IMG/VR virus record: IMGVR_UViG_3300048598_000530
Span: 28,439-92,438 of that record
Length of the DNA stretch: 64,000 nucleotides
Direction: 5' to 3' (one strand)
Source of the DNA: a virus
Under the pieces are notes generated by a model. It saw only the letters and a program-made list of their open reading frames with translations. It was not told the origin of the DNA and did no database searches. Below, in pieces: positions 28,054-58,625 of the stretch (positions are counted from its first letter, which is position 1; every line of letters starts with the position of its first letter). The position numbers and the translations under genes are program-made.

Positions 28054-28473
28054 TTAATTTATATGTTTATGAATCTGAATTACACGCTCTTGACCTAATG
28101 CTTTTTCTTTTGTGGGATGTCTACCCAATAATCTATCTTCATCATGTGTATATAAACACCATTGTTGCTCAGAATCAGGTCTTTCATCTTTATCTTTTTT
28201 AGGACATCTTTTAATTATTGCTATTTTGCTAGAACTATCTATAGCATCACTATTCGTATTCAATCTAGAAACCAATTGACTTATAAAGGATGTCAAATCT
28301 AGATAACTCGCGTTTTCTCTAAGTTTGAACTGTTTGATTAGTTCCTTAGACAGTTTTTTCTTTTTATAAAGAATTTCAGCATTTTGCTCTAACATGTCTT
28401 TGCCATTTTGAGCGTAATCGCGTCTTTCTTTTAAAGGTTCTAAGATTTGTGCAATAATTTTCTCTGTATTCAT
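28054..28473 (-). CDS. Hypothetical protein
   Basis: 139-aa ORF; C-terminal WCLY...LLGRHPTKEKA. Confidence 0.55.
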   Translation of the reverse strand: MNTEKIIAQILEPLKERRDYAQNGKDMLEQNAEILYKKKKLSKELIKQFKLRENASYLDLTSFISQLVSRLNTNSDAIDSSSKIAIIKRCPKKDKDERPDSEQQWCLYTHDEDRLLGRHPTKEKALGQERVIQIHKHIN

Positions 28474-46650: not shown

Positions 46651-47532
46651 TCAGTACAAATTATTTTTCAAAGCATACTCATAAACATTCATATCCATAT
46701 ACTTCCTTATTTCAACATATTGTTCTTCAGTAAGTTTATGTTCTCTTACAAGATCGCGTAAATAGGTGGAAGAAATACACACAGGAGGATCATCAGGATC
46801 AAGGTATCTATGAGGAGCTTGTAAACACCAGTCAGCTTTAAATTCTACAGCTTGACGCTTTACTACAACAAAAGGCACCATTTTTAGCAAATCTTCATAG
46901 TTTGACCATTGCTCTATAGTATTTGCATTATCAAGACCAATAATCAAACTAAAAGAGTATTTATCTTTGAATTCTGCATCATTCATCAGTTTTTTCATAA
47001 AATGATACGTTTCGCCTTGAAACTCATTTTTTATTTCATAATCAAAGATCTTAATGCGTGCATCAGCTTTTGCAGCAATCCTACACATCTCTAAACGATG
47101 CTGCGCATCAGTAAGTTTTTTGCCATATAAATGCTGAAAACAAGGAGTAATCCATACTTCATCATAATCGCTGCTATGATTCAAAACAATTTTAGAAACA
47201 CTAATATGACCATTATGGATCATATCAAATGCTCCTCCATATATTGCAACTCTACGTTTTCTTCCAAGTGTATGGTATTGCTTTTTCCGTCTATTTATTT
47301 TTATTAGGGTCTCTTGAACGACTTCTTCTACAGTCCATCCATTTTCAGAACATGATTGAATCGCAGAACATAAAAGATCGCCTGTCTCTTCTTTCAAACC
47401 TCTGATATCGACGCTTCTTGTAAGCTCAATGGCTTCATTAAGAATATCAGCATGTCTTTCACGTAATGAACTGTGTCCAAAAGCATCTACGAAAACATCG
47501 TTCACACTCTTTTGAAGATCATTAGTATCCAT
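46651..47532 (-). CDS. nadD: MazG-like NTP pyrophosphohydrolase domain fused to a nicotinate/nicotinamide-nucleotide adenylyltransferase
   Basis: N-terminal EAIEL...EETGDLL (MazG ExxE...ExxD); C-terminal YGGAFDMIHNGH, IIGLDN, ISST. Confidence 0.8.
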   Translation of the reverse strand: MDTNDLQKSVNDVFVDAFGHSSLRERHADILNEAIELTRSVDIRGLKEETGDLLCSAIQSCSENGWTVEEVVQETLIKINRRKKQYHTLGRKRRVAIYGGAFDMIHNGHISVSKIVLNHSSDYDEVWITPCFQHLYGKKLTDAQHRLEMCRIAAKADARIKIFDYEIKNEFQGETYHFMKKLMNDAEFKDKYSFSLIIGLDNANTIEQWSNYEDLLKMVPFVVVKRQAVEFKADWCLQAPHRYLDPDDPPVCISSTYLRDLVREHKLTEEQYVEIRKYMDMNVYEYALKNNLY

Positions 47533-47541
47533 TTTACTTCC

Positions 47542-47970
47542 TTAGAGATTATGTTTAGAATTAACTAGACTGTCAAAGAATGAATTTAAGATAGACCAAT
47601 CAGTTTCAGGCTCAAAACCCGCACGATCATCAAACAAAACATTAAAATAAAACTTCTTTGAAAAATCTCCAGTCTTATTACTTTTACACTCGGGATTTGC
47701 ATTCAAATGCTTAAAAACAATATCGTTTTGCAAACACCATGCAAAAAAAGGTGCAAGATCTTTTTCATAAGATGAAGTAAAAAGAATTAATGTAATATCT
47801 GGAATTTTTGAAAGCTTTTGCAAAACTTCTTTCGCAAAAGGGTAAACTTTAATCTCATTGCCTGTGTATCTTTCAATAACAGTTCCATGAAGATCGACAG
47901 CAAAATAAAGCATTTCCCAGTTTCGCTGTTTCTTTTCTTCGTACGCTGTCAAAACAGATTTTAATATCAT
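47542..47970 (-). CDS. HAD-superfamily protein
   Basis: AVDLHGTV, LILFTSS, VLFDDRA motifs. Confidence 0.65.
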   Translation of the reverse strand: MILKSVLTAYEEKKQRNWEMLYFAVDLHGTVIERYTGNEIKVYPFAKEVLQKLSKIPDITLILFTSSYEKDLAPFFAWCLQNDIVFKHLNANPECKSNKTGDFSKKFYFNVLFDDRAGFEPETDWSILNSFFDSLVNSKHNL

Positions 47971-47977
47971 AACTTAC

Positions 47978-48391
47978 CTACGATTTTGTTGGCCAAACGT
48001 ATTCTAAATCTATAGACTCTGTCCAACCAAACTGCTTATAATAATCAAACTTCTTTCTTAGCAAATTACTACGATGAGAAGCATGAAAATTATCATCACC
48101 TAACCATGATGGATAAATAACGCTCTCAACTTCATTAATTGCCATAGTATTATTGTATCCTCGTTCAATCCATTCTTGGATACAAACATTCATATACTCT
48201 TTTAGTGCTGCTTCGTAAGTCTCCCATTGAAGCACAACAGGATGATTCACCCAACCTCTTTTAATGTTTTGTTTTCTAGCTTCAAGAGCAATTAAAATTT
48301 GCTTACATTCTACTCTTTGTTTACCTAAACGTCTATAATCTAAACATTTTGCTGATTTAACAAAATCAGAATAAGGTAAGAAAGTTTGCAT
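47978..48391 (-). CDS. Pyrimidine-dimer DNA glycosylase-like (DenV/MSMEG_6728 family) protein
   Basis: MQTFLP...LDYRRLGKQRVE...NHP...SHRSNLLRK...YVWP. Confidence 0.8.
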   Translation of the reverse strand: MQTFLPYSDFVKSAKCLDYRRLGKQRVECKQILIALEARKQNIKRGWVNHPVVLQWETYEAALKEYMNVCIQEWIERGYNNTMAINEVESVIYPSWLGDDNFHASHRSNLLRKKFDYYKQFGWTESIDLEYVWPTKS

Positions 48392-48464
48392 ATCTTAGTT
48401 TCTAAAGAAAAAACAAAACAAGCTAGACACAAAACATTGACATTTTTTCAAAACTAGTTTTTAG

Positions 48465-48716
48465 TTAACGTCTTGGAGAGTTTTCTCTTTCTCTAGCAGG
48501 AGTCACAGTGATGCTACGACCATTCATAGAAGTATTATTAGCAGACAATGCACTATCTGAATTAGCCATCTCAACAAAACCAAAACCGCGTGATCTTCCA
48601 GTGTCTCTGTCTTGAATAATTCTCACTGAAGCAACAGGGCCATACTTCTCAAAAAATGCTTTCAGTTCGTCTTCAGAAGTTTGAAACGGAAGATTACCTA
48701 CATAAAGTTTACCCAC
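48465..48716 (-). CDS. RRM (RNP-1) RNA-binding protein
   Basis: RNP2 LYVGNL and RNP1 RGFGFVEM. Confidence 0.92.
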   Translation of the reverse strand: MGKLYVGNLPFQTSEDELKAFFEKYGPVASVRIIQDRDTGRSRGFGFVEMANSDSALSANNTSMNGRSITVTPARERENSPRR

Positions 48717-48850
48717 AAGAAACCTCCATATAAAAAAATAAAAACTCCAAACAATAGGAGTCGAGTTTTGTAATTATATATCTGCGCACGTGTTGTTTGA
48801 TTTTTTTTATTGATGAAGCATACAATAATACTTGTATCGTCTTAAAAAAA

Positions 48851-48924
48851 TACCCTGGGAGAGAATTGAACTCCCAACAGCAAAATTAGAAATTTTGTAC
48901 TCTATCCATTTGAGTTACCAGGGC
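48851..48924 (-). tRNA. tRNA-Arg(UCU)
   Basis: GCCCTGG/CCAGGGT acceptor, loop TTTCTAA, TTCAATT T-loop; CCA not encoded. Confidence 0.9.
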
Positions 48925-48972
48925 AAGATATTGAATTATATTATTGTCTCTGCATTATTGTCACAATATGTA

Positions 48973-50022
48973 TCATGTAATTTCTTTGATAACTTTATGC
49001 TTATTACTCCACAAACTATTCTGTTTCAAGACTGTAACAATTACTCTTTCATAAACATTACATCTTTTAGCAAGTTCTTCAATCGAGATAAAATATTTAT
49101 GAAATTCTTTAATTATTTTATTTATTATTTGTTTGTTTCTTATTTTTGAACATGCTAAAGTGTGTCTTTTAAATGTCGATTCATTATGTAAAACTTTTCC
49201 ACAAACACAAGTCTTTCTAGTTATACATTCGTTTGGAAAATGCTTATTAAAAAATCTCTTGACAAAATGTTTTGTTTTCTTCCATTTTTTTGATAGTTTT
49301 AAACTAATATTATCGCTACCTAAAAATAAACTTGCATCATTTAAGTATTTGTCTAATTTACTCTTAACTTTGCTTTCTTTAAATTTCAATTCTTTTAACT
49401 TTTTTTCTTGTTCAACTTTAAGACGTCTACATTGATACAAAGTATAATCTTCAACACAAATTTCAGTTTGTTTTGTATTAGACAAAATTTTTAAAATTTG
49501 TTTTATTCTTGTTTTAGGTGTTTTAATAAAATCTTTCCAAACTATACGTAATACTTTTACACCTTGTTTATTTATATACAAATCTTTTTTTGTATCGAAA
49601 TTTTTTCTTTTTTCATGTTGTTTCCCATCAATTTCAACAGCTAGTTTTAATTTAAAAAAATAAAAATCAACACGATAAAAACTAAAAGGAAATTCTCTAA
49701 AAAAATCTTTATCTTTTTCATAACCATTATTAATTAAAATTTTTTCAAAAAACTCTTCAGCATAAGAAAATCTATTCCAACCCTTTGATCTTCCTATCAT
49801 TATCTCAGATTGTGTTCTTTGAATGTCTTTAAGAATTTCATCAAGTTTTGCTTTTGTACACCATTTTTCTTTGTAAAGTTGTTTTTTTGTTGCTCCCTCA
49901 AGATATCTTTTTCTTACTTCATTTATTTTTATTTGCTCAATACAAGCTTTAAAATGTCTAGAATAACTTGATATGCGAATTTCTTTACCACATTTTTCAC
50001 AATTTTTATAATTCATAAGCAT
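48973..50022 (-). CDS. DUF559/Vsr-like endonuclease with Zn fingers (putative homing endonuclease)
   Basis: REFPFSFYRVDF...AVEIDGKQH. Confidence 0.75.
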   Translation of the reverse strand: MLMNYKNCEKCGKEIRISSYSRHFKACIEQIKINEVRKRYLEGATKKQLYKEKWCTKAKLDEILKDIQRTQSEIMIGRSKGWNRFSYAEEFFEKILINNGYEKDKDFFREFPFSFYRVDFYFFKLKLAVEIDGKQHEKRKNFDTKKDLYINKQGVKVLRIVWKDFIKTPKTRIKQILKILSNTKQTEICVEDYTLYQCRRLKVEQEKKLKELKFKESKVKSKLDKYLNDASLFLGSDNISLKLSKKWKKTKHFVKRFFNKHFPNECITRKTCVCGKVLHNESTFKRHTLACSKIRNKQIINKIIKEFHKYFISIEELAKRCNVYERVIVTVLKQNSLWSNKHKVIKEIT

Positions 50023-50033
50023 CTTATTAAAAA

Positions 50034-50105
50034 TACTCCTGCCAGGAATTGAACCTGAATCTTGCGATTCGTAATCGCGTACTTTATCCTTTAAGCTACA
50101 GGAGC
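50034..50105 (-). tRNA. tRNA-Arg(ACG)
   Basis: GCTCCTG/CAGGAGT acceptor, loop TTACGAA. Confidence 0.9.
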
Positions 50106-50110
50106 GAAAA

Positions 50111-50182
50111 AGCGGTAGAGCAGATTCGAACTGCTGACATCTTCTTTGGCAAAGAAGGATTCTACCTCTGAACTACTACCGC
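50111..50182 (-). tRNA. tRNA-Gly(GCC)
   Basis: GCGGTAG/CTACCGC acceptor, loop TTGCCAA, U73. Confidence 0.9.
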
Positions 50183-50481
50183 ATAACTTGTCGTTTTTCG
50201 TTTGCTAATTTATTTACATACAAATCAACTGCATTGTGACCCAAAATTCTTTTTGATTCGAATTCATCATAATTTTGATCTGCAACTTCTATTAACCACG
50301 GATACGTTTTAATAATTTTCATTAAAATTAACAACTCAGGACTTGGATCTTCAGTACTTAATGAACCCATTTGAAGATCAAGTGCTCTTTCAACACTCGC
50401 TTGTGTATATCCGTAATTTGCATTCAATTCAACTAAAAATTCTTCTATAAATGTCATATAAACTTTCATAAAAATAAGCAA
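50176..50481 (-). CDS. Hypothetical protein between tRNA genes
   Basis: 101-aa ORF; exact start uncertain. Confidence 0.5.
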   Translation of the reverse strand: MLIFMKVYMTFIEEFLVELNANYGYTQASVERALDLQMGSLSTEDPSPELLILMKIIKTYPWLIEVADQNYDEFESKRILGHNAVDLYVNKLANEKRQVMR

Positions 50482-50547
50482 CCGATCAGATTTGAACTGA
50501 TGACTTCGCTTTGGAAGAGCAAGATGTTTCCACTACAACACGGTTGC
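50477..50547 (-). tRNA. tRNA-Gly(UCC)
   Basis: GCAACCG/CGGTTGC acceptor, loop CTTCCAA, U73; weak D-stem. Confidence 0.85.
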
Positions 50548-51427
50548 AATAATATTCTTTCCAATCTAAACCTTGATATTTTTTACTTCCTGTTCTTTTT
50601 TTAATATATGTTTGTTTATCAATATCAGGGAAGTTTAAACGTAAAAATTTTCTGATACTAGTTCCAGATATTCCTAATTTATTTTTTGCTTCTTTAAGCC
50701 ATCCTCGTTTAGACATATCAATAGTTTTAAGAATTTCTAATTTGTTTTTAATTTCTTCTTGTCTTTTATCTTCTTTTTGTTTTTTCTTAAAATTTTCTCG
50801 TTTAATTATTTCATCTAACAAGTTTAATGTCTTCAATTGTGTTTTTGTCAACTTATTTATTTCTATTTCTTGTTCTTTTTCGTTTTTTAAAACTCTTAAA
50901 GTTTCTTCTAATATTTGTTTTGTATTATTGAATAACACTTTAAAAGAAATTCTTAACACCTTATAACCTAAAGATTTTAATAATTCGTCCTTAGATTTAT
51001 CTGAAATTTGTCTATTTTTATATTTATAATGTTGTTGTCCATCTATCTCAATTGCAAGTTTTAATTTTAAGAAAAAGAAATCAATTCTATATTTTGAAAC
51101 TTGAAACTCTCTAACATAATCAATATTTGTTTCAAACCCGTTATTTATCAAAAAATTTTCAAAAAACTCTTCTGCATAAGAACGATTTTTCCAGCCTTTA
51201 CCTTTTGACAATTTCATTGCTTCACTTGCTGTTCTAAATTTACCTTTTAATGCGTAACTTACAAGACTATAAGTGAAACCTTTTTCTACTATTTCTCTAC
51301 TGCACAAGCCTTGGTCATAAAATAAACATATTTGTTCGCGCTCGTTTTGTGTTATGCACACATGATTTGAAAAACTTTGCTTTATAATAGTACGTAAACA
51401 ACGAGAACATGTTTGTGTTTTTGACAT
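50486..51427 (-). CDS. DUF559/Vsr-like endonuclease (putative homing endonuclease); 3' end runs through tRNA-Gly(UCC)
   Basis: REFQVSKYRIDF...AIEIDGQQH. Confidence 0.75.
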   Translation of the reverse strand: MSKTQTCSRCLRTIIKQSFSNHVCITQNEREQICLFYDQGLCSREIVEKGFTYSLVSYALKGKFRTASEAMKLSKGKGWKNRSYAEEFFENFLINNGFETNIDYVREFQVSKYRIDFFFLKLKLAIEIDGQQHYKYKNRQISDKSKDELLKSLGYKVLRISFKVLFNNTKQILEETLRVLKNEKEQEIEINKLTKTQLKTLNLLDEIIKRENFKKKQKEDKRQEEIKNKLEILKTIDMSKRGWLKEAKNKLGISGTSIRKFLRLNFPDIDKQTYIKKRTGSKKYQGLDWKEYYCNRVVVETSCSSKAKSSVQI

Positions 51428-51447
51428 AAATTACCAAATCAAAAAAA

Positions 51448-51537
51448 TGGCTGACAGGGAGGGACTTGAACCCCCACAGAGTTTCACCTCGTACGCCACA
51501 TTAACAGTGTGGTCACTTGCCATTAGTGTACCTGTCA
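51448..51537 (-). tRNA. tRNA-Asn(GUU) with an atypical 20-nt variable arm, CCA encoded
   Basis: TGACAGG/CCTGTCA acceptor (U1-A72), G73, loop CTGTTAA, variable region CGTACGAGGTGAAACTCTGT. Confidence 0.8.
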
Positions 51538-51554
51538 GTAAAAGAATATTTAAA

Positions 51555-51626
51555 CGGAACATAGGGGAATTGAACCCCTGTCGTCAGATTGACAGTCTGG
51601 CATCCTAACCACTAGACGAATGCTCC
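51555..51626 (-). tRNA. tRNA-Asp(GUC)
   Basis: GGAGCAT/ATGTTCC acceptor, loop CTGTCAA, G73. Confidence 0.9.
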
Positions 51627-51634
51627 ATATTTTT

Positions 51635-51707
51635 CAGATAGAAAGGGATTTGAACCCCTAATCAACTGGTTAACAGCCAGTCCGCTTGCCAATTTGCGTA
51701 CCTATCT
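51635..51707 (-). tRNA. tRNA-Asn(GUU)
   Basis: AGATAGG/TCTATCT acceptor, loop CTGTTAA, G73. Confidence 0.88.
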
Positions 51708-51725
51708 ATAATTCAAAGAACTAAA

Positions 51726-51798
51726 TGGAGCCAGAGAGGCTTGAACTCTCAACCCCTGGCTTGCAAAGCCAGTGCTCTTCCAATTGAGCTATGGTCCC
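51726..51798 (-). tRNA. tRNA-Ala(UGC)
   Basis: G3:U70 identity pair, loop TTTGCAA, A73. Confidence 0.92.
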
Positions 51799-51808
51799 AA
51801 AATTTTTT

Positions 51809-52066
51809 CTAATCTAATTCTGAAAAACTATCGTTATGTTTTCTTTCTTGCAAAGATAAACCATAAACTTTTCTTTGATTACCGCACATAATACAAGAAC
51901 AAAGTTTAGTTGTATTTCGTCTTTTTCTTGACGCCATCAACAAACGTTCTTCTCTTTCTTTCGGATCTTTTTCAAAATAAAATCCATTCCAATAACGATA
52001 ACCTCGTTTTTTGCCTTTGGTATCTCCAACGACAAAACGTTCTAACCGATTTCTCGGATGTGACAT
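51809..52066 (-). CDS. Small basic hypothetical protein with a Cys motif
   Basis: 85 aa, CSCIMCGN; AAGGAG RBS. Confidence 0.6.
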   Translation of the reverse strand: MSHPRNRLERFVVGDTKGKKRGYRYWNGFYFEKDPKEREERLLMASRKRRNTTKLCSCIMCGNQRKVYGLSLQERKHNDSFSELD

Positions 52067-52139
52067 AATGACTCCTTACTGCATCCTCTGGTGGGATGCT
52101 ATTGTTTGGATGCCATTATATCCTCCTTTGTTAAATTAA

Positions 52140-52221
52140 TAGGAACGGCGGGATTTGAACCCACATTTACAACATACCAGTTACGATTATCCACCTTATA
52201 AGAGTGGCTCGGTACATTCCT
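52140..52221 (-). tRNA. Non-canonical tRNA-Ile(UAU)-like RNA (D-loop-like element 3' of the anticodon arm)
   Basis: AGGAATG/CGTTCCT acceptor, GTGGG-TTCAAAT-CCCGC T-arm, CCACT-CTTATAA-GGTGG anticodon arm, no D-arm at the normal position. Confidence 0.7.
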
Positions 52222-52227
52222 GTAAAA

Positions 52228-52304
52228 TCTTCTCGATTGGAGTTGAACCAATATGTCACCAATTACCCTTTCTACACCGTATCAGAGTGAGGGGATACGA
52301 GAAG
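52228..52304 (-). tRNA. Non-canonical tRNA-Ile(GAU)-like RNA (same rearranged topology)
   Basis: CTTCTCG/CGAGAAG acceptor, ATTGG-TTCAACT-CCAAT T-arm, CACT-CTGATAC-GGTG anticodon arm. Confidence 0.7.
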
Positions 52305-53291
52305 TTGTTTGCTATAATAAGTTTTCCAGTCGCAATTTTGATATTTCTTAACACTTGTTCTTGGTTTGAAATATGTTTGTTTGTCAATTTCAGGAAAATT
52401 CAATCGTAAAAACCTTCTTATATAAGTACGCGATACTTTAAGTTTTTTTGATAAACTAGTTATCCAACCCCTTTTAGTAATATCTGAATTTTCTAAAATC
52501 ATTTGGAGTTTCTTTTTTATTGTTTCTTCTTTTAGTTTTTTAATTATTTGTTTTTCTTTTAACTTCTGTTCTTGATCTTGTTTTTCTTTAATTTTTTTGA
52601 ATTTATAATATTCAATTACACATTCAGAAAAATTATATAATTTAGGTTGTAAATCAAAACTATCAAGATATTCTAAAAATTGTTTTTCAATTTGTTCAAA
52701 TTCATTTTTTAATTTAAACCCAGGAATTCTAAAAACTTTCCAACCTAATTTTATCAGTTTTTCATTTCTTTTGATATCAATTTGTTTTTGACGCTCACAA
52801 AAAATGTGTTGTGAACCATCAATTTCTACATCAAGTTTTATATTTAAGAATGCAAAATCTAAATAATAAGGAAAAATGCTATATTCTCTTATTATATCGA
52901 ATTTTTCAGAAAGACTGTTTCTTTCAATGATATCTGAAAATATCTTTTCAATATAAGTTTGTTTATTTCTTCGCCATTCGTTTGTACGTTGCATTGACAT
53001 ATATTTTTTTCTGCCATCACGTATTCTTTGTCTTGTTTGTTCTGAAACTTTTCTTGAGTTCTTATGATAAAAAATCTTCATTTGTTGTGATAAACTTCTC
53101 TTATTGTTTTTTATCAAGTACTCTACTGTAGATTTATTGTAGCCCATCTTAATTATTTTACCTGCACTCAATAAATCTTCATAGTATAATTTTAAAATTT
53201 CTTTATTTTCTTGCTCATTGCATTTTTTAATATGATGTGCATAGTTAGATTTTGTTTTAAAAACTTTTCCACAAATTTTGCAATTCCACAT
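52272..53291 (-). CDS. DUF559/Vsr-like endonuclease with an N-terminal C2H2 finger; 3' end overlaps the Ile(GAU)-like RNA
   Basis: CKICGKVFKTKSNYAHH; REYSIFPYYLDF...DVEIDGSQH; ATG at 53291 after AAAGGAG. Confidence 0.75.
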   Translation of the reverse strand: MWNCKICGKVFKTKSNYAHHIKKCNEQENKEILKLYYEDLLSAGKIIKMGYNKSTVEYLIKNNKRSLSQQMKIFYHKNSRKVSEQTRQRIRDGRKKYMSMQRTNEWRRNKQTYIEKIFSDIIERNSLSEKFDIIREYSIFPYYLDFAFLNIKLDVEIDGSQHIFCERQKQIDIKRNEKLIKLGWKVFRIPGFKLKNEFEQIEKQFLEYLDSFDLQPKLYNFSECVIEYYKFKKIKEKQDQEQKLKEKQIIKKLKEETIKKKLQMILENSDITKRGWITSLSKKLKVSRTYIRRFLRLNFPEIDKQTYFKPRTSVKKYQNCDWKTYYSKQLLVSPHSDTV

Positions 53292-53412
53292 TTGAACTCC
53301 TTTAGTAGCGTCAGACAAGCACTCTAATCTAGCTTATTGATAAAAGGAGTACAAATAGTTTTCAAAACACTAAATTTCAAAGAGCAAAATTCAAGCATAA
53401 TAAACTTGAAAA

Positions 53413-53484
53413 TACTCCTACCGAGAATCGAACTCGGATGCCAACAGTGAAAATGTTGTGACTTAGCCATTGGTCTATAGGAGC
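53413..53484 (-). tRNA. tRNA-Glu(UUC)
   Basis: GCTCCTA/TAGGAGT acceptor, loop TTTTCAC. Confidence 0.88.
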
Positions 53485-53499
53485 AATTTTATTTTAAAA

Positions 53500-53572
53500 A
53501 GCCCAGGACAGGGATCGAACCCGCGACATCTACATTACAAGTGTAGCGCTCTACCAACTGAGCTACCTGGGC
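53500..53572 (-). tRNA. tRNA-Thr(UGU)
   Basis: GCCCAGG/CCTGGGC acceptor, loop CTTGTAA. Confidence 0.93.
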
Positions 53573-53588
53573 AAAATTTAAAAGAGCT

Positions 53589-53623
53589 AAAAAGAAACGG
53601 ACCCTGAATTTCTTCAAGGTCCG
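53589..53623 (-). terminator. Attenuator terminator upstream of the tRNA operon
   Basis: CGGACCTTGAA-GAAA-TTCAGGGTCCG (11 bp, one G.U) followed by TTTCTTTTT. Confidence 0.9.
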
Positions 53624-53658
53624 CATCCTAAATTTTATTTTTATATTAGGATGCGGAC
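53619..53658 (-). promoter_or_regulatory. Antiterminator hairpin overlapping the terminator 5' arm
   Basis: Perfect 13-bp inverted repeat GTCCGCATCCTAA / TTAGGATGCGGAC sharing 53619-53623 with the terminator stem. Confidence 0.85.
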
Positions 53659-53659
53659 A

Positions 53660-53737
53660 TTACCCTCCTGTTTCGTCATTACCGTTTATGGTAATACGAT
53701 TTTCGCGGGCTCTGTTTGCTATCCTTGTTGTTTTCAT
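53660..53737 (-). CDS. Leader peptide MKTTRIANRARENRITINGNDETGG (25 aa) of the tRNA operon
   Basis: Hand translation; the stop codon abuts the antiterminator and the codons mirror the downstream tRNA set. Confidence 0.85.
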   Translation of the reverse strand: MKTTRIANRARENRITINGNDETGG

Positions 53738-53743
53738 GTTTTT

Positions 53744-53772
53744 AATATAACAAATAAAAATGTAAATGTAAA
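53744..53772 (-). promoter_or_regulatory. Sigma70-type promoter giving a leaderless leader mRNA
   Basis: TTTACA (53772-53767), 17 nt, TATATT (53749-53744) with an upstream TG; the A of ATG is 7 nt downstream. Confidence 0.7.
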
Positions 53773-53793
53773 GGTTTTTTTATAAAAAATATT

Positions 53794-54003
53794 ATGACAT
53801 TTACAAAACAACTTGATGAAGCAAAATTTTGTATTGAAACAATGAAAACAATCGGTACTTTTCAAAACCATAAAATTGGAATTGTTAATATAGGAAAAGA
53901 TACGTTAACTTTAATAAATGGAAGAGTTTGTCTTTATAGAGAAGATGGTAATACACTGACAACAGAATATGCTCATAGTAAAAAAAGATTGAAGAGAATT
54001 TAA
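53794..54003 (+). CDS. Hypothetical protein (possibly frameshifted; alternative end 54101)
   Basis: 69-aa ORF; adding one A in the A7 run at 53980-53986 extends it by about 37 codons. Confidence 0.4.
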   Translation: MTFTKQLDEAKFCIETMKTIGTFQNHKIGIVNIGKDTLTLINGRVCLYREDGNTLTTEYAHSKKRLKRI

Positions 54004-54521
54004 GAAAAAACAATTTACTGACAACATATTCTACTTGCGTTTGTGTACCTAAGAAACATATAATTCCTTTTCGTTCGAAATACGAAAAAATATTTGGCTG
54101 AAAAACATAAAGAATCGATTTATATAATAAGGAAACAAATAAAAATGTTTGGCAATAAACTTAAAAACATTCGATATTCACTCAAAATTCAGCAAGGAGG
54201 TGTTTAAAACTCAAAAAAGCATTTAGATCTTTCTATGTTGACTGTCAAAGCAGTAGCATTATAGTACATTAGTTAGTGAAAAAAACAAAAGTTTGTGTTT
54301 GTACTGAGAAAGTTCTAAACAATATCTCACCTAAAATTACTGCTTTCTGATTTGAATATCAAATTCAAATCAAACTACAACTTTGCACTTGTTATCTAAG
54401 ACTAAGGTCTGAAAAACACAAGTCTCCTGTAGTTACAAAGCGGGTCCGTTATACTGAGGAAAAAATCGGTATAAAGATGTACTCGTTGTGTAATGTTTAA
54501 CTACAAAAAAGGAGACTTAGA

Positions 54522-54833
54522 ATGAACTTCAAACGTACATATTCTGGTGAATTGACATTGTCTGTTTCAGAAAACAATGCTGGTGTAATTATTGAAATTA
54601 GCAAACAAAAAACAGTAGTTGGATGTATTCAAAAAAGAAAATGGACTTGGTGCCAAAAAACTCAAATTTGCAACATAAAAGAGTTAATGTCAACTGGTCC
54701 AGTGAAGCTGCAAGAGTTATATCATGTTATGAGTGCAAATAATGAATCGAAAAAAGCAAGTATTCGAGGATCGATCTATCATAACTTAGATCAATTCCAA
54801 AAAGTGAATCGTGGTTGCTGGCGGTTGAAGTAA
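54522..54833 (+). CDS. Small protein with a possible C-terminal winged-helix
   Basis: AGGAG RBS; GPVKLQELY...SIRGSIY...RGCWRLK. Confidence 0.55.
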   Translation: MNFKRTYSGELTLSVSENNAGVIIEISKQKTVVGCIQKRKWTWCQKTQICNIKELMSTGPVKLQELYHVMSANNESKKASIRGSIYHNLDQFQKVNRGCWRLK

Positions 54834-54837
54834 AACG

Positions 54838-54862
54838 AGTCGAGAGCGTTATGCTCTCGACT
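54838..54862. terminator. Hairpin between convergent genes
   Basis: AGTCGAGAGC-GTTAT-GCTCTCGACT, perfect 10 bp. Confidence 0.7.
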
Positions 54863-55951
54863 TTATAATAATCTATTAGTTTTGATTATTTTGTAAAGAA
54901 TTTCGACAAATTCTGTATCAAATTCAATAGATCTTCCTTCAAATAAAACTTGTAAAGCAAATTCTATACTTTGTGCTTTTCTATAGGGTCTGTTTGAGAC
55001 TAAAGAATCGAATGTGTCAGCAACAGCAAGAATTCTTGCACCTGTAGGTATTGCTTTTTCTTTTAGTTTATGCGGATAACCTTTTCCATTCCATCTTTCA
55101 TGATGATGTAAAACATAGTCGCTGATCTTACCTACATTATCGACAGGTTTAATTATTTTATAAGACAGTTCAGAGTGTTTTTTGATTAATTCGTATTCTT
55201 CATCTGTAAGTTTGTCTTTTTTAAAAAGAATCTCGTCTTTAACACCAATTTTGCCTATATCATGTAAACGTCCAGCTATAGCAACGTCTTCAATAAATGC
55301 TTCATCATCAGTGTATTCTAAACAAATTTTCTCAGAAAGTTCGCCGACTTTTTCAGAATGATTTTTTGTATACTCATCTCTTTGTTCTAAAGCATTTGTT
55401 AAAGAAGTAAGCGTATTGAAAAAAATCTTATCTCTTTCTTTTTGAATTACAACAATTTTTGCTCTTAAATTCTCAGCTAAATGTGAATTTCTTCTTAAAT
55501 TTTTTGTGTTTCTAGAAGCTTGTAACAATAATAAACCCAATGTTGTTAATTGAAAAGGTTTATTTAAGAATGCATATATATTCTTTTTTATAATTGTTGT
55601 GATAAATTCATCTGTATTAAAACCTGTCATTAAAATAATAGTAAGCTCTGGATCGATTTTATTAGCTTCATCTACAAAATCAAAACCTGTACACCCATCA
55701 TCAAGAAAAATGTCGCAAATAACTACATCAAACTGGTGACTTTCTACAAGGTTTATAGCTTTAGTTAGATTTTCAGCTGTAAAACAATATCCACCATGAT
55801 TTTCTATAAAAGTTTTAAGAAGATCAAGTTGTATATTATCATCATCAACAACAAGAACTGTCAAGTTCATTAAAATAGATGTGTGTTGTATATCTATAAT
55901 GTTCATTATTTTACCTTTAAACTTGACAATGCATATTGAATCAAAATACAC
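54863..55951 (-). CDS. Response regulator receiver fused to an HD-GYP cyclic-dinucleotide phosphodiesterase
   Basis: REC motifs VLVVDDD, VICDIFL, NKP; HD-GYP motifs YTKNHS, LHDIGKIG, HHERWNGKGYP, AVADTFD, RPYRKA. Confidence 0.92.
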   Translation of the reverse strand: MYFDSICIVKFKGKIMNIIDIQHTSILMNLTVLVVDDDNIQLDLLKTFIENHGGYCFTAENLTKAINLVESHQFDVVICDIFLDDGCTGFDFVDEANKIDPELTIILMTGFNTDEFITTIIKKNIYAFLNKPFQLTTLGLLLLQASRNTKNLRRNSHLAENLRAKIVVIQKERDKIFFNTLTSLTNALEQRDEYTKNHSEKVGELSEKICLEYTDDEAFIEDVAIAGRLHDIGKIGVKDEILFKKDKLTDEEYELIKKHSELSYKIIKPVDNVGKISDYVLHHHERWNGKGYPHKLKEKAIPTGARILAVADTFDSLVSNRPYRKAQSIEFALQVLFEGRSIEFDTEFVEILYKIIKTNRLL

Positions 55952-56054
55952 TTATACCCTTGTTTATATTATACCAACGCGTATTAAAAATAATGACAAC
56001 AAAAAAAATTTTTAAAAAAAATATCACTTTTGCTAACTTTGATATATATTTCTC

Positions 56055-56200
56055 TAGAACAATGCTCTTTTAACAGTGATTGCTTACATTACTTTATAGC
56101 TCAGTTGGTTAGAGCGACCGCCTTAAAAGCAGTAAGTCTCAGGTTCGAATCCTGAAAAAGTAGCCAAAATCTAGCATTTACAACTCAGAGTATTGTTCTA
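56055..56200 (+). ncRNA. Y-RNA-like cassette 1: conserved scaffold enclosing a full tRNA-like cloverleaf (56090-56166, UAA loop, CCA)
   Basis: Closing stem TAGAACAATGCTC/GAGTATTGTTCTA; motifs TTTAAC..TGCTTACA and TAGCA..AACTC. Confidence 0.75.
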
Positions 56201-56222
56201 ATTTTAATAACATGAAAATTAT

Positions 56223-56375
56223 TAAAACTGCTCTTTAACAACAGGTGCTTACACATGGTTTAAGTTAGTCCGAAAGACTAATGAAGACGTTCGAATCGTC
56301 TATTCCCCGTTAAGGAAATTTAAGTTTCTTTAACGGGGAATAAAAAGTTCAGCACGTGAAACTCGAGCAGTTTTA
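56223..56375 (+). ncRNA. Y-RNA-like cassette 2: scaffold enclosing a short hairpin, a T-arm and a 17-bp acceptor-like hairpin
   Basis: Closing stem TAAAACTGCTC/GAGCAGTTTTA; AGACG-TTCGAAT-CGTCT T-arm. Confidence 0.75.
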
Positions 56376-56389
56376 TTTTTTGAAATAAT

Positions 56390-56520
56390 CAAGTGTTCTT
56401 TAACTTTAAATGCTTACATGCTTTTTAGCTCAATGGTCGAGCAATTATTTGGGTATAATGGGTTCTTGGTTCAAGTCCAAGGGAAGCGACAAAAAATAGC
56501 ATTTTGAACTCGAACACTTG
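56390..56520 (+). ncRNA. Y-RNA-like cassette 3: scaffold enclosing a degenerate tRNA-Pro-like cloverleaf
   Basis: Closing stem CAAGTGTTC/GAACACTTG; GCTC/GAGC D-arm; CTTGG-TTCAAGT-CCAAG T-arm. Confidence 0.75.
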
Positions 56521-56537
56521 TTTTTTATAAAGGAAAT

Positions 56538-56688
56538 AAAGTCGTGTCTTTTAACGCTGAAAGCATACATTTTTTTCGTCAGTTCAAATCTGACTATCTC
56601 CTCGGTGAGGGGATATGGCCGAGCGGTTTAAGGCAACCAACTGCTAATTGGAACACAAAAATAGCTCTCAAAACTCAGACATGACTTT
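56538..56688 (+). ncRNA. Y-RNA-like cassette 4: scaffold enclosing a circularly permuted tRNA-Ser(GCU)-like module
   Basis: Closing stem AAAGTCGTGTC/GACATGACTTT; arm order T-arm, closed acceptor, D-arm, anticodon arm. Confidence 0.75.
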
Positions 56689-56717
56689 TTAGTTAAATAG
56701 TTTGGTGGTAAGTTAAA

Positions 56718-56743
56718 GGGGCTCAGTTAAAGAGCCCCTTTTT
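56718..56743 (+). terminator. Intrinsic terminator ending the ncRNA array
   Basis: GGGGCTC-AGTTAAA-GAGCCCC-TTTTT. Confidence 0.9.
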
Positions 56744-56818
56744 GTTTAAATTTTATTTTGTATCTTGTAATTAAAAAACTATAGAAATAAAACATAATTC
56801 TAATGAAAGGAATGAACT

Positions 56819-57073
56819 ATGTCAATTATCCATGTAGCATACGGTGGAAGAAATGAAGATCTTGAGTTTGACGATGTATTTCGTGAAGACAGACTTCATT
56901 CTCTGGGTATGACGACAAAACCTTTGTCACAATCAACAAATCCCGAAACAGTGAAGCGTGCACTTGCAATTCACTATGATGTAAGTTATGACGAGTTTGA
57001 CTCGCATTTTGTTGAAGTCAATCCAAACGGGAACATTACAGTACGTCCCAATGCAAAATGGGGAAGAGGCTAA
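56819..57073 (+). CDS. Putative ubiquitin-like (beta-grasp) modifier
   Basis: 84 aa ending ...NGNITVRPNAKWGRG*; first gene of an operon with E1, JAB and E2-like genes. Fold is inferred. Confidence 0.55.
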   Translation: MSIIHVAYGGRNEDLEFDDVFREDRLHSLGMTTKPLSQSTNPETVKRALAIHYDVSYDEFDSHFVEVNPNGNITVRPNAKWGRG

Positions 57074-57074
57074 A

Positions 57075-58625
57075 ATGGCAACAACACAAAAAACAGAAGA
57101 AGATGTACGTGTTAAAATCTTGAATTCGTTTATGACATGTCCTCATAGAGACACAAACGAATTAAAGGTTATACATGCTGAAATGAGAGAAAAAGATCCT
57201 GTTTTTTACGCACATCTTGCTGCATGGTATAAAAAGAATGGTGAACTTCGTGATCATAACGAAGTTTTTACTGCAATGCTTTTAACAGATCCTTATTTAC
57301 AGAACCGTGAAACAGGTATTGCTCTTTTTCAACAGCAAGCTCCCTTTATGAAAGCAAAAATTATTGGTTTCATAAAAGGTAAAAAAATTATTCTAAGAGA
57401 GAAAACAGGTAAGAAAACTCAACGAGGAAAGAAACTCGTCGATGACATTAAAAACACTGAGAAAAAAGTAGGTCTTGAAAAATCAATTCCAGGTCTTTTG
57501 AAAACAGAGATCACAAAATATCTCAGATGGCTTGAAGCTGATAATGAACGTTTTGATACTGTCGCCTTGAAAAATTTTAAAGAGTTAAAATCTCTTTATG
57601 CAGGAAAGGGCACACAAGTAAAACCAAGTCCAAGAGCGCAAGCTATTCTTTTTGATGAAAAAATTCCTGAAGATAGTAAGCTTTCTGTTTTCAAAAAAAT
57701 AACTAATGCAAAGACTCCTGAAGAGGCTGCACTTCTTATTGTTGAAAATAAAATACCTTACACTATCGCGATAGGTTTAATTGAAAAAATTACGCCTTCA
57801 ATTCTTATTGCTTTAGTTAATAGTATGTCATCACAGGAAATTATTAACAACATTGCATCTTTACAAGAAAAAGGAGCAATGGACAATCCTGGTCTGAAGA
57901 AACTCATCACAGATAAACTTGAGACAGCAAAAACTGCAAAAAATGTTACAGCTCTAAAATCAAAAAGAGCAAAAGCAACAGGAAGAGTTACTGATGAAGC
58001 TGTTGTAAAACAACTCGACGAAATTGCTGACAAACAAATTAAAAAATCAGGAACAATTAAAAGTTCTACAGCAATTCTTGTCGATAAATCAGGTTCTTTA
58101 GCTGTCGCAATTGAAGCAGGAAAACAAATTGCAGCTGCAATTTCAGGTACAATGGAAGCTGATCTTCATGTTATTGCTTATGATACTATTGCTAGATCTA
58201 TTAAAGCAAAAGATAATACTCTTACAGCATGGGAAGAAGCATTTAAACCAATTAAGTCTGATGGAGGAACATCAGCAGGTTGTGCCCTTGAATTTATGTT
58301 GAGATATAAATTGTTTGCTGAACAACTTATTATTGTCACTGATGAAGAAGACAGACATACTCCAAAGTTCTACGACATTTTTCCGAAATATGTTGAAGAA
58401 ATGAAAGTTACTCCACATATTGTTATCGTCAGAGTTGGTAATGTTAATCCTATTTTAAGTACTGAACTTAAAGCAAAAGGAATTGCTTTCGATATTCATG
58501 AGCCTAAAGGAAGTGATTACTATGGAATTCCAGGACTTATTCCTTTGATTTCAAGAAAATCAAAACTTGACTTGGTTTATGAAATTATGGACTTTCCATT
58601 ACCAAAAAGAAAGTCATATGTCTGA
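57075..58625 (+). CDS. TROVE/Ro60-like protein with a C-terminal vWA domain
   Basis: DPVFYAHLAAWY...LRD and MSSQEIINNIASL resemble TROVE helical motifs; MIDAS-like ILVDKSGS...T...VTDEE; probable start MATTQK at 57075. Confidence 0.7.
   Translation: MATTQKTEEDVRVKILNSFMTCPHRDTNELKVIHAEMREKDPVFYAHLAAWYKKNGELRDHNEVFTAMLLTDPYLQNRETGIALFQQQAPFMKAKIIGFIKGKKIILREKTGKKTQRGKKLVDDIKNTEKKVGLEKSIPGLLKTEITKYLRWLEADNERFDTVALKNFKELKSLYAGKGTQVKPSPRAQAILFDEKIPEDSKLSVFKKITNAKTPEEAALLIVENKIPYTIAIGLIEKITPSILIALVNSMSSQEIINNIASLQEKGAMDNPGLKKLITDKLETAKTAKNVTALKSKRAKATGRVTDEAVVKQLDEIADKQIKKSGTIKSSTAILVDKSGSLAVAIEAGKQIAAAISGTMEADLHVIAYDTIARSIKAKDNTLTAWEEAFKPIKSDGGTSAGCALEFMLRYKLFAEQLIIVTDEEDRHTPKFYDIFPKYVEEMKVTPHIVIVRVGNVNPILSTELKAKGIAFDIHEPKGSDYYGIPGLIPLISRKSKLDLVYEIMDFPLPKRKSYV

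Follow-up and report, generated by a model that had tools for sequence, protein, structure and literature searches.

A putative codon-sampling leader-peptide attenuator ahead of a phage tRNA operon

tRNA genes are usually thought to be controlled through their promoters, by growth rate and the stringent response, and it is still debated why phages carry tRNA genes and how these are used. We asked what governs a phage tRNA array that follows a promoter, a very short reading frame and two overlapping hairpins. The array lies in the window, which is the whole 64,000-nt stretch of viral DNA analysed here (IMG/VR virus record IMGVR_UViG_3300048598_000530, positions 28,439 to 92,438). From the sequence and from folding models, we consider it likely that the leader of this array is a ribosome-mediated (leader-peptide) transcription attenuator that gates the phage tRNA operon.

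The record holding the window is 119 kb long, has ~31% G+C and is estimated to be 52% complete; portal, terminase and major head genes are encoded in this virus. We searched for cultured close relatives with blastn against 50,697 phage records and found matches to tRNA genes alone, and a neighbouring 69-aa gene used as an anchor in IMG/VR gave no match. Among GTDB genomes, the only TerL match is a 4-kb contig, L034 (JAKQQL010000317.1), at 49% identity; the bin of this contig, a Candidatus Cloacimonadota MAG, is a weak lead to the host of the window phage. Two further records served for comparison: G001 (424 kb, 98% complete), whose terminase is 83% identical to that of the window, and G006 (416 kb), whose terminase is 49% identical.

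An amber-suppressor-type tRNA(CUA) is encoded in G000, the genome of the window (C1:115082-115152, outside the window; L033:1582-1654), and in G001 (L032:1278-1350), in both directly after a protein gene. We looked for a leader before this suppressor tRNA in G000 and G001 and found none. The tRNA(CUA) gene raised the idea of TAG recoding in G000, which was rejected because the long ORFs become no longer when TAG is read as sense. TAG is the stop codon of one of the leaders described below, G006-E.

The leader of the window lies on the minus strand, and its elements, in the order of transcription, are the following:

53744-53772, minus strand: promoter, with -35 TTTACA (53772-53767), a 17-nt spacer and an extended -10 TGtTATATT (53752-53744)
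53660-53737, minus strand: leader ORF of 25 codons plus TAA (53662-53660), with its ATG at the predicted transcript start
53705-53725, minus strand: segment 1, from the 5' part of the ORF; it forms an imperfect pairing with segment 2 and is a candidate anti-antiterminator
53646-53658, minus strand: segment 2, the 5' arm of a 13-bp hairpin, beginning 2 nt past the stop codon
53619-53631, minus strand: segment 3, the 3' arm of the 13-bp hairpin, whose last 6 nt are shared with the terminator
53589-53624, minus strand: intrinsic terminator, with a stem-loop (53624-53597) and a U-tract (53596-53589)

An earlier note, made from the letters alone, had proposed this succession of promoter, ORF, two hairpins, U-tract and tRNAs, and we found every element where it had been placed. 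The promoter matches the sigma70-type consensus at 10 of 12 positions and adds the TG extension. Its motif, TKTACA-N17-TATATT, has 13 matches in three genomes, six of them directly upstream of tRNA leaders. The ATG at 53737 is the seventh base after the -10 element (a 6-nt gap), and the same gap between the -10 element and the ATG recurs in an independent leader, G001-B. Because the ATG coincides with the predicted transcript start, the mRNA is predicted to be leaderless, and leaderless initiation is assumed for the window leader from here on.

Segments 2 and 3 form a 13-bp hairpin (53658-53646 with 53631-53619; -21.2 kcal/mol, z -9.6). The earlier note had let this hairpin begin at the stop codon itself, and the true start is 2 nt further on; a ribosome positioned on the stop codon covers segment 2. 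Six nucleotides of segment 3 (53624-53619) double as the base of the 5' arm of the terminator. The terminator has a 12-bp stem including one G-U pair, a GAAA loop and a stability of -19.3 kcal/mol (z -7.0), and is followed by TTCTTTTT; its loop, U-tract and overlap with the preceding hairpin had been described correctly, and its stem had been given as 11 bp. tRNA-Thr begins at 53572, 24 nt beyond the terminator. The whole ORF also folds back onto segment 2 (-28.4 kcal/mol, z -5.5), and the fold of the entire leader (165 nt) has -52 kcal/mol (z -7.1). The ORF upstream is divergent, on the plus strand. Hence, the terminator is not that of an upstream gene.

Just upstream of the divergent region, a minus-strand gene at 54863-55951 encodes a fusion of a response-regulator receiver domain with an HD-GYP-type HD domain, and the terminator at 54862-54838 belongs to that gene. 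Within the leader, a micro-ORF of four codons (53660-53646, minus strand) has an ATG that overlaps the leader TAA, follows GGAGGG and lies exactly on segment 2; since it is identical in all three homologues of the leader, its conservation is uninformative. We found no match to T-box or to the curated Rfam leader families (His, Trp, Thr, Leu and others) by cmscan of positions 47000-58000 at E <= 1. The homologous region of G001, at E <= 5, gave tRNA matches and chance-level matches only, with no Rfam leader family.

Downstream of the terminator, the unit that would be regulated comprises the following features:

48850-53572, minus strand: regulated unit, from ARAGORN, Rfam and ORFs
53318-52272, 51427-50486 and 50022-48973, minus strand: three DUF559/Vsr-like endonuclease ORFs that interrupt the tRNA array
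48743-48762, minus strand: terminator-like hairpin with a T-run, following the last tRNA

The array reads Thr(UGU), Glu(UUC), two non-canonical Ile-like genes (GAU, UAU), Ala(UGC), Asn, Asp, Asn, Gly(UCC), Gly(GCC), Arg(ACG) and Arg(UCU), with small ORFs also interspersed. Of the 12 tRNA genes first counted here, 10 are canonical by ARAGORN on this strand, and the two Ile genes are non-canonical; one of the latter corresponds to a weak Rfam tRNA match at 52140-52221 (35.8 bits). The hairpin after the last tRNA is the probable end of the transcription unit as judged from its sequence. A consensus promoter-like site at 48964-48935 precedes the last tRNA; hence, not every gene of the array need depend on the leader.

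Several features of the array concern the history of its genes. In the Ile-like pair (UAU and GAU; 52140-52304, minus strand), the D-arm region is displaced and a long insert follows the anticodon arm, and the pair stands in place of the canonical Ile tRNAs of L022, an activated-sludge contig with a homologous leader. The UAU gene recurs with hardly a base changed in the distant phage G006 (L028:15265-15340), which indicates a real RNA type and not decay. A tRNA-Asn(GUU) gene at 51448-51537 (minus strand) is 90 nt long with a long variable region and adjoins a normal tRNA-Asn. The three DUF559/Vsr-like ORFs are paralogous (313-349 aa), and one has a C2H2 zinc finger; they are missing from the otherwise collinear L022 array, and G001 has a different ORF between leader and tRNA-Thr. 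These ORFs resemble mobile endonucleases of the homing type that invade the tRNA operon.

The leader is not alone in its design. Before two more tRNA blocks of G001 and four of G006 there is likewise a small ORF followed by a terminator; these six leaders are non-homologous to that of the window, which we call the A type. An intrinsic terminator is present in all seven leader types. By sequence prediction, a Shine-Dalgarno (SD) site precedes the ORF in G001-A (the G001 homologue of the window leader), G001-C, G006-B, G006-C, G006-D and G006-E.

The elements suggest the following mechanism for the window leader. RNA polymerase would start at the strong sigma70-type promoter, with the transcript beginning at or next to the AUG, and a ribosome would translate the 25 codons and thereby sample all 11 isoacceptors encoded downstream. 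If all 11 were decoded fast, the ribosome would reach the UAA and cover segment 2, the 3:4 pairing would give the full 12-bp terminator, and the transcript would be released 24 nt before tRNA-Thr. If any sampled aminoacyl-tRNA were scarce, the ribosome would stall within the ORF with segment 1 occupied and segment 2 free; the free segment would enter the 13-bp 2:3 hairpin, which would compete for the terminator base and allow more read-through into the tRNA genes. With no translation at all, the ORF would fold on itself (1:2) and the terminator would form. The outcome would be a negative feedback loop on decoding capacity. Since the ORF lies inside the 1:2 fold, a stall almost anywhere in it should free segment 2, which fits informative codons that are spread along the whole leader. 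The transcript start, the translation, the termination, the sign of the regulation and its physiological trigger are what we infer from the sequence.

We folded each leader at equilibrium with a 28-nt stretch masked as if by a ribosome. With the mask on the stop codon, the terminator probability was 0.8-0.9 or higher. With the mask on the matched codons, it was close to 0 in G006-B and G006-C; G001-B (codons 10-14) and parts of G001-C and G006-D had low values. With this pattern, most units behave in the folding model as a trp/his-type attenuator does. At least five of the seven leader types have, at the 3' end of the ORF, a segment complementary to part or all of the terminator 5' arm; in the A type, this segment sits just after the stop codon. 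Mutual exclusion of antiterminator and terminator is clear in G001-B, G006-B, G006-C and G006-E and partial in G006-D and G001-C.

The window unit itself responds less. At equilibrium, a 10-bp terminator persists at any ribosome position, and only the bottom 2 bp are affected, their probability falling from ~0.9 to 0.3-0.5. The 2:3 hairpin shares only 6 nt with the terminator; hence, the switch may be graded, and the model suggests that the switch of this unit may be weak, graded or dependent on co-transcriptional kinetics. For the free RNA (no ribosome), the window has a terminator probability of 0.48; in G001, with its 1:2 pairing of 9 bp, the value is 0.96.

The same elements might also act by another logic, in which translation of the leader affects tRNA output without competition between the 2:3 and 3:4 pairings. 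Translation could shield the nascent transcript from Rho, the leader could alter precursor stability or processing, or the terminated 150-nt leader RNA could be a trans-acting small RNA, and tRNA shortage might then evoke a response of another sign or size. That the window antiterminator removes only 2 bp of the terminator at equilibrium speaks for such a logic, as does the fact that untranslated tRNA transcripts could be Rho targets. What speaks against it is the segment complementary to the terminator 5' arm in at least five of seven leader types, which is the hallmark of classical attenuation, and the strong intrinsic terminator with its U-tract in each unit. We regard this other logic as unlikely and keep ribosome-mediated attenuation as the preferred reading.

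Evidence for this reading comes from what the leader encodes. All 23 codons after Met-Lys specify Thr, Arg, Ile, Ala, Asn, Glu, Gly or Asp, which are the eight amino acids of the array. This had been claimed before, together with the sampling of each of the 11 anticodons, and both statements held: under strict wobble rules, 21 of the 23 codons have a cognate tRNA in the array, and no anticodon goes unsampled (11 of 11). In the long ORFs of the same phage, background windows have on average 44% cognate codons and sample 6.1 anticodons.

We compared this match with three nulls (p < 5e-6). No shuffle of the 69 nt kept all 23 codons in the set (0 of 200,000 with mononucleotide composition preserved and 0 of 200,000 with dinucleotide composition preserved). 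The joint statistic, which combines cognate codons and anticodons sampled, was reached by none of 31,741 equal-length windows in the phage's own long ORFs and by none of 200,000 draws from phage codon usage. The ORF frame has a cognate fraction of 0.88, and the other five frames have 0.12-0.38. Hence, the match exceeds chance, as the earlier note had estimated crudely (~1e-7), with shuffles, gene windows and codon draws all giving zero.

The chief new evidence comes from comparison: we found the same correspondence between leader and block in the six further units, each with a different set of tRNAs. G001-B (L025, ORF 2110-2036) has the TTTACA-17-TATATT promoter, the 6-nt gap and the leaderless ATG of the window; its run QQPQPQQPR (CAA CAG CCG CAA CCA CAA CAA CCC AGG) samples 6 of 6 anticodons, those of Pro (UGG, CGG, GGG), Gln (UUG, CUG) and Arg (CCU). 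G001-C (L026, 12825-12682) samples all 17 anticodons of a block of 19 tRNAs. G006-B (L027, 1370-1435) samples 6 of 6 with a Gln/Pro/Arg run in which Arg is CGA, CGT and CGG, and its block carries tRNA-Arg(UCG) and tRNA-Arg(GCG). G006-C (L029, 6710-6570) samples 10 of 12 and adds Glu, Gly, Asp and Tyr codons that match its block. G006-D (L030, 4908-4822) samples 3 of 3, with FSSFCF before Phe, Ser(GCU), Cys and Cys; its Ser codons are all AGY, which match tRNA-Ser(GCU). G006-E (L028, 10891-10811) has Val, Met, Ile, Thr and Ala codons before Met, Thr, Ala, Ile and Val tRNAs. Even the synonymous choice co-varies, with Arg AGG accompanying tRNA-Arg(CCU) and CGA, CGT and CGG accompanying tRNA-Arg(UCG, GCG).

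The joint statistic was run against background for G001-B, G001-C, G006-B, G006-C and G006-D. For the first three, no background gene window or codon draw reached the observed value, and for G006-C and G006-D it was reached by at most 0.4% of the background. The true assignment of leaders to blocks gave the highest total match of all permutations in both genomes (1 of 6 in G001 and 1 of 24 in G006). Hence, the trivial reading, that phage ORFs merely use the codons that phage tRNAs read, is excluded. The earlier note had named the agreement between leader codons and tRNA content in relatives as a check, and across six units, in the permutations and down to synonymous codons, the two co-vary. 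The trp/his-type reading that the note had offered is thereby supported in silico, by independent co-varying units and by mask folding in most of them.

The match is not complete everywhere. The longer C-type leaders have 20-40% non-matching codons, the G006-D leader is rich in Asn codons though no Asn tRNA follows, and G001-A has no GAG despite the tRNA-Glu(CUC) of its block. In that same block, and in the other tRNA loci of G001 that were fetched, there is no tRNA-Ala, and the leader keeps GCA and GCC. In G006-D, a TGTACA-N17-TATATT promoter stands ~190 nt upstream of the ATG with a G+C-rich hairpin in between (L030:5150-5020, minus strand), which could be an extra control element.

The A-type leader has three known copies, in the window, G001 and L022. 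The exact hairpin pattern, searched in JGI/ENA metagenomes, was found in G001 and L022 only, and a degenerate DNA pattern written from the peptide at the ORF end matched G001 alone. L022 differs from the window leader by 1 change in 165 nt, in a surrounding 1.6 kb that is 89.8% identical, and its compact array has 12 canonical tRNAs, including Ile(GAU) and Ile(UAU), without endonucleases. The G001 leader is ~94% identical to that of the window, in a neighbouring gene region of ~79% identity. The terminator sequence is identical in all three copies, and the hairpin arms of G001 are identical to those of the window, with two changes that fall in a loop. Behind the near-identical leaders, the tRNA-Thr(UGU) genes of the window (53500-53572) and L022 (1597-1668) differ markedly in sequence; blastn identity runs ~55 nt into tRNA-Thr and ends at window position 53517. 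From these sequences, tRNA genes appear to be exchanged as cassettes.

The G001 ORF differs from that of the window by seven nucleotides in six codons, of which three are synonymous and three swap Thr, Ile or Ala; codon 16 is Thr, Ile or Ala across the three copies. All seven codon changes among the three homologues (7 of 7) remain within the eight-amino-acid set, for which random single-base changes would give 56.5%. Three substitutions near the 5' end in G001 extend the contiguous 1:2 pairing from 5 to 9 bp. Since several changes preserve or extend RNA pairing, constraint on peptide codons and constraint on structure are inseparable in three homologues, and three copies are too few and too similar for a helix covariation test. 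A 12-nt insertion in G001 places an AAGGA SD site 7 nt before the ATG, and around this insertion the promoter hexamers alone are conserved, with a diverged spacer. The gain of an SD site argues, at the sequence level, that the leader ORF is translated.

It is very improbable that a chance reading frame in a structured 5' leader explains these data, with hairpins that act as an ordinary terminator, processing signal or stabiliser and a codon match due to coincidence or composition. With 30 A and 8 T among its 69 nt, the ORF stretch has a composition, rich in A and poor in T, that favours some of the eight amino acids, and the codon statistic had been chosen after the data were seen. Nevertheless, none of the composition-matched shuffles reaches the match and the signal is frame-specific; these shuffles and the frame test rule out composition bias as its source. 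The six non-homologous leaders with different amino-acid sets and the best score of the correct assignment in both genomes count against a chance frame too, as does the SD site gained in G001. Least probable is that the small ORFs are functional micro-proteins (e.g. regulators of tRNA processing or charging) whose composition reflects that function, since the A-type peptide is indeed well conserved among three phages but from block to block the peptides share neither sequence nor length (21-47 residues), their composition tracks the anticodons of each block down to synonymous codons, codon 16 varies among close relatives, and RNA pairings also explain the nucleotide conservation.

Attenuation by codon sampling thus is the reading we carry forward. 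Because the leader codons match the array and six blocks own matching leaders, we read the locus as on-demand expression: the phage probably turns on a tRNA set only when its ribosomes run short of that set. These giant phages would divide a nearly complete tRNA complement into three or four regulons, each with a codon-sampling leader. We lean, with less assurance than for the attenuator itself, towards a scheme in which each of three or four feedback regulons is monitored by a test strip of one codon per isoacceptor, and in which only the limiting tRNA sets are replenished after host mismatch, host shut-off or an anticodon-nuclease defence.

If true, this scheme would amount to a general principle of tRNA gene control that has so far gone undescribed. 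Translation itself could then feedback-control tRNA supply, phage tRNAs may be produced on demand and not constitutively, and large phages would partition the genetic code into separately sensed regulons. The design recurs in the unrelated leaders of G001, G006 and the window phage. Through such leaders, it would become directly testable which tRNAs become limiting in infection, and the leaders could serve synthetic biology as natural, compact, codon-specific sensors of tRNA availability.

Among known systems, the pheST (pheM) leader of E. coli is an attenuator of an aminoacyl-tRNA synthetase and, like the phage leader, controls a component of the translation apparatus; unlike it, the pheM leader senses Phe codons alone, controls a protein gene and is cellular. 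The T-box riboswitch shares with the phage leader a cis-acting choice between terminator and antiterminator that follows tRNA status. However, in a T-box a single uncharged tRNA is bound directly and translation plays no part, and its targets are synthetase or amino-acid genes, whereas the phage leader is an ORF.

Mycobacterial leaderless polycysteine short ORFs are described as Cys-responsive attenuators (bioRxiv 10.1101/834739). They are the nearest parallel to its leaderless form and resemble the phage leader in being leaderless ORFs whose translation speed reportedly controls a downstream operon, and differ from it in sensing one amino acid, controlling protein-coding operons and not requiring an intrinsic terminator switch.

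The mechanism of the classical leader-peptide attenuators (trpL, hisL, pheL, leuL and the multivalent thrL and ilvL) has been reviewed (PMC1183508). In common with them, the phage leader has a promoter-proximal short ORF with putative regulatory codons, candidate alternative 1:2, 2:3 and 3:4 hairpins and an intrinsic terminator before the regulated genes. In the classical attenuators, a ribosome on the stop codon leads to termination and a stalled ribosome to read-through, and we propose the same for the phage leader. The phage leader has no sequence or Rfam similarity to the classical leaders and belongs to a viral system. Classical attenuators control biosynthetic enzymes, whereas the phage leader precedes tRNA genes, and in full-text literature searches we found no prior description of an attenuator or leader peptide before tRNA genes. 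Leader-peptide attenuation is known, and it is the tRNA gene targets, the single codon per isoacceptor and the viral setting that differ from known cases. Closest in logic are the multivalent thr and ilv leaders. Classical leaders repeat one or two codons, whereas the phage leaders sample up to 11-17 isoacceptors with about one codon each; because so many isoacceptors are sampled, a phage leader would sense the decoding capacity for its whole tRNA set.
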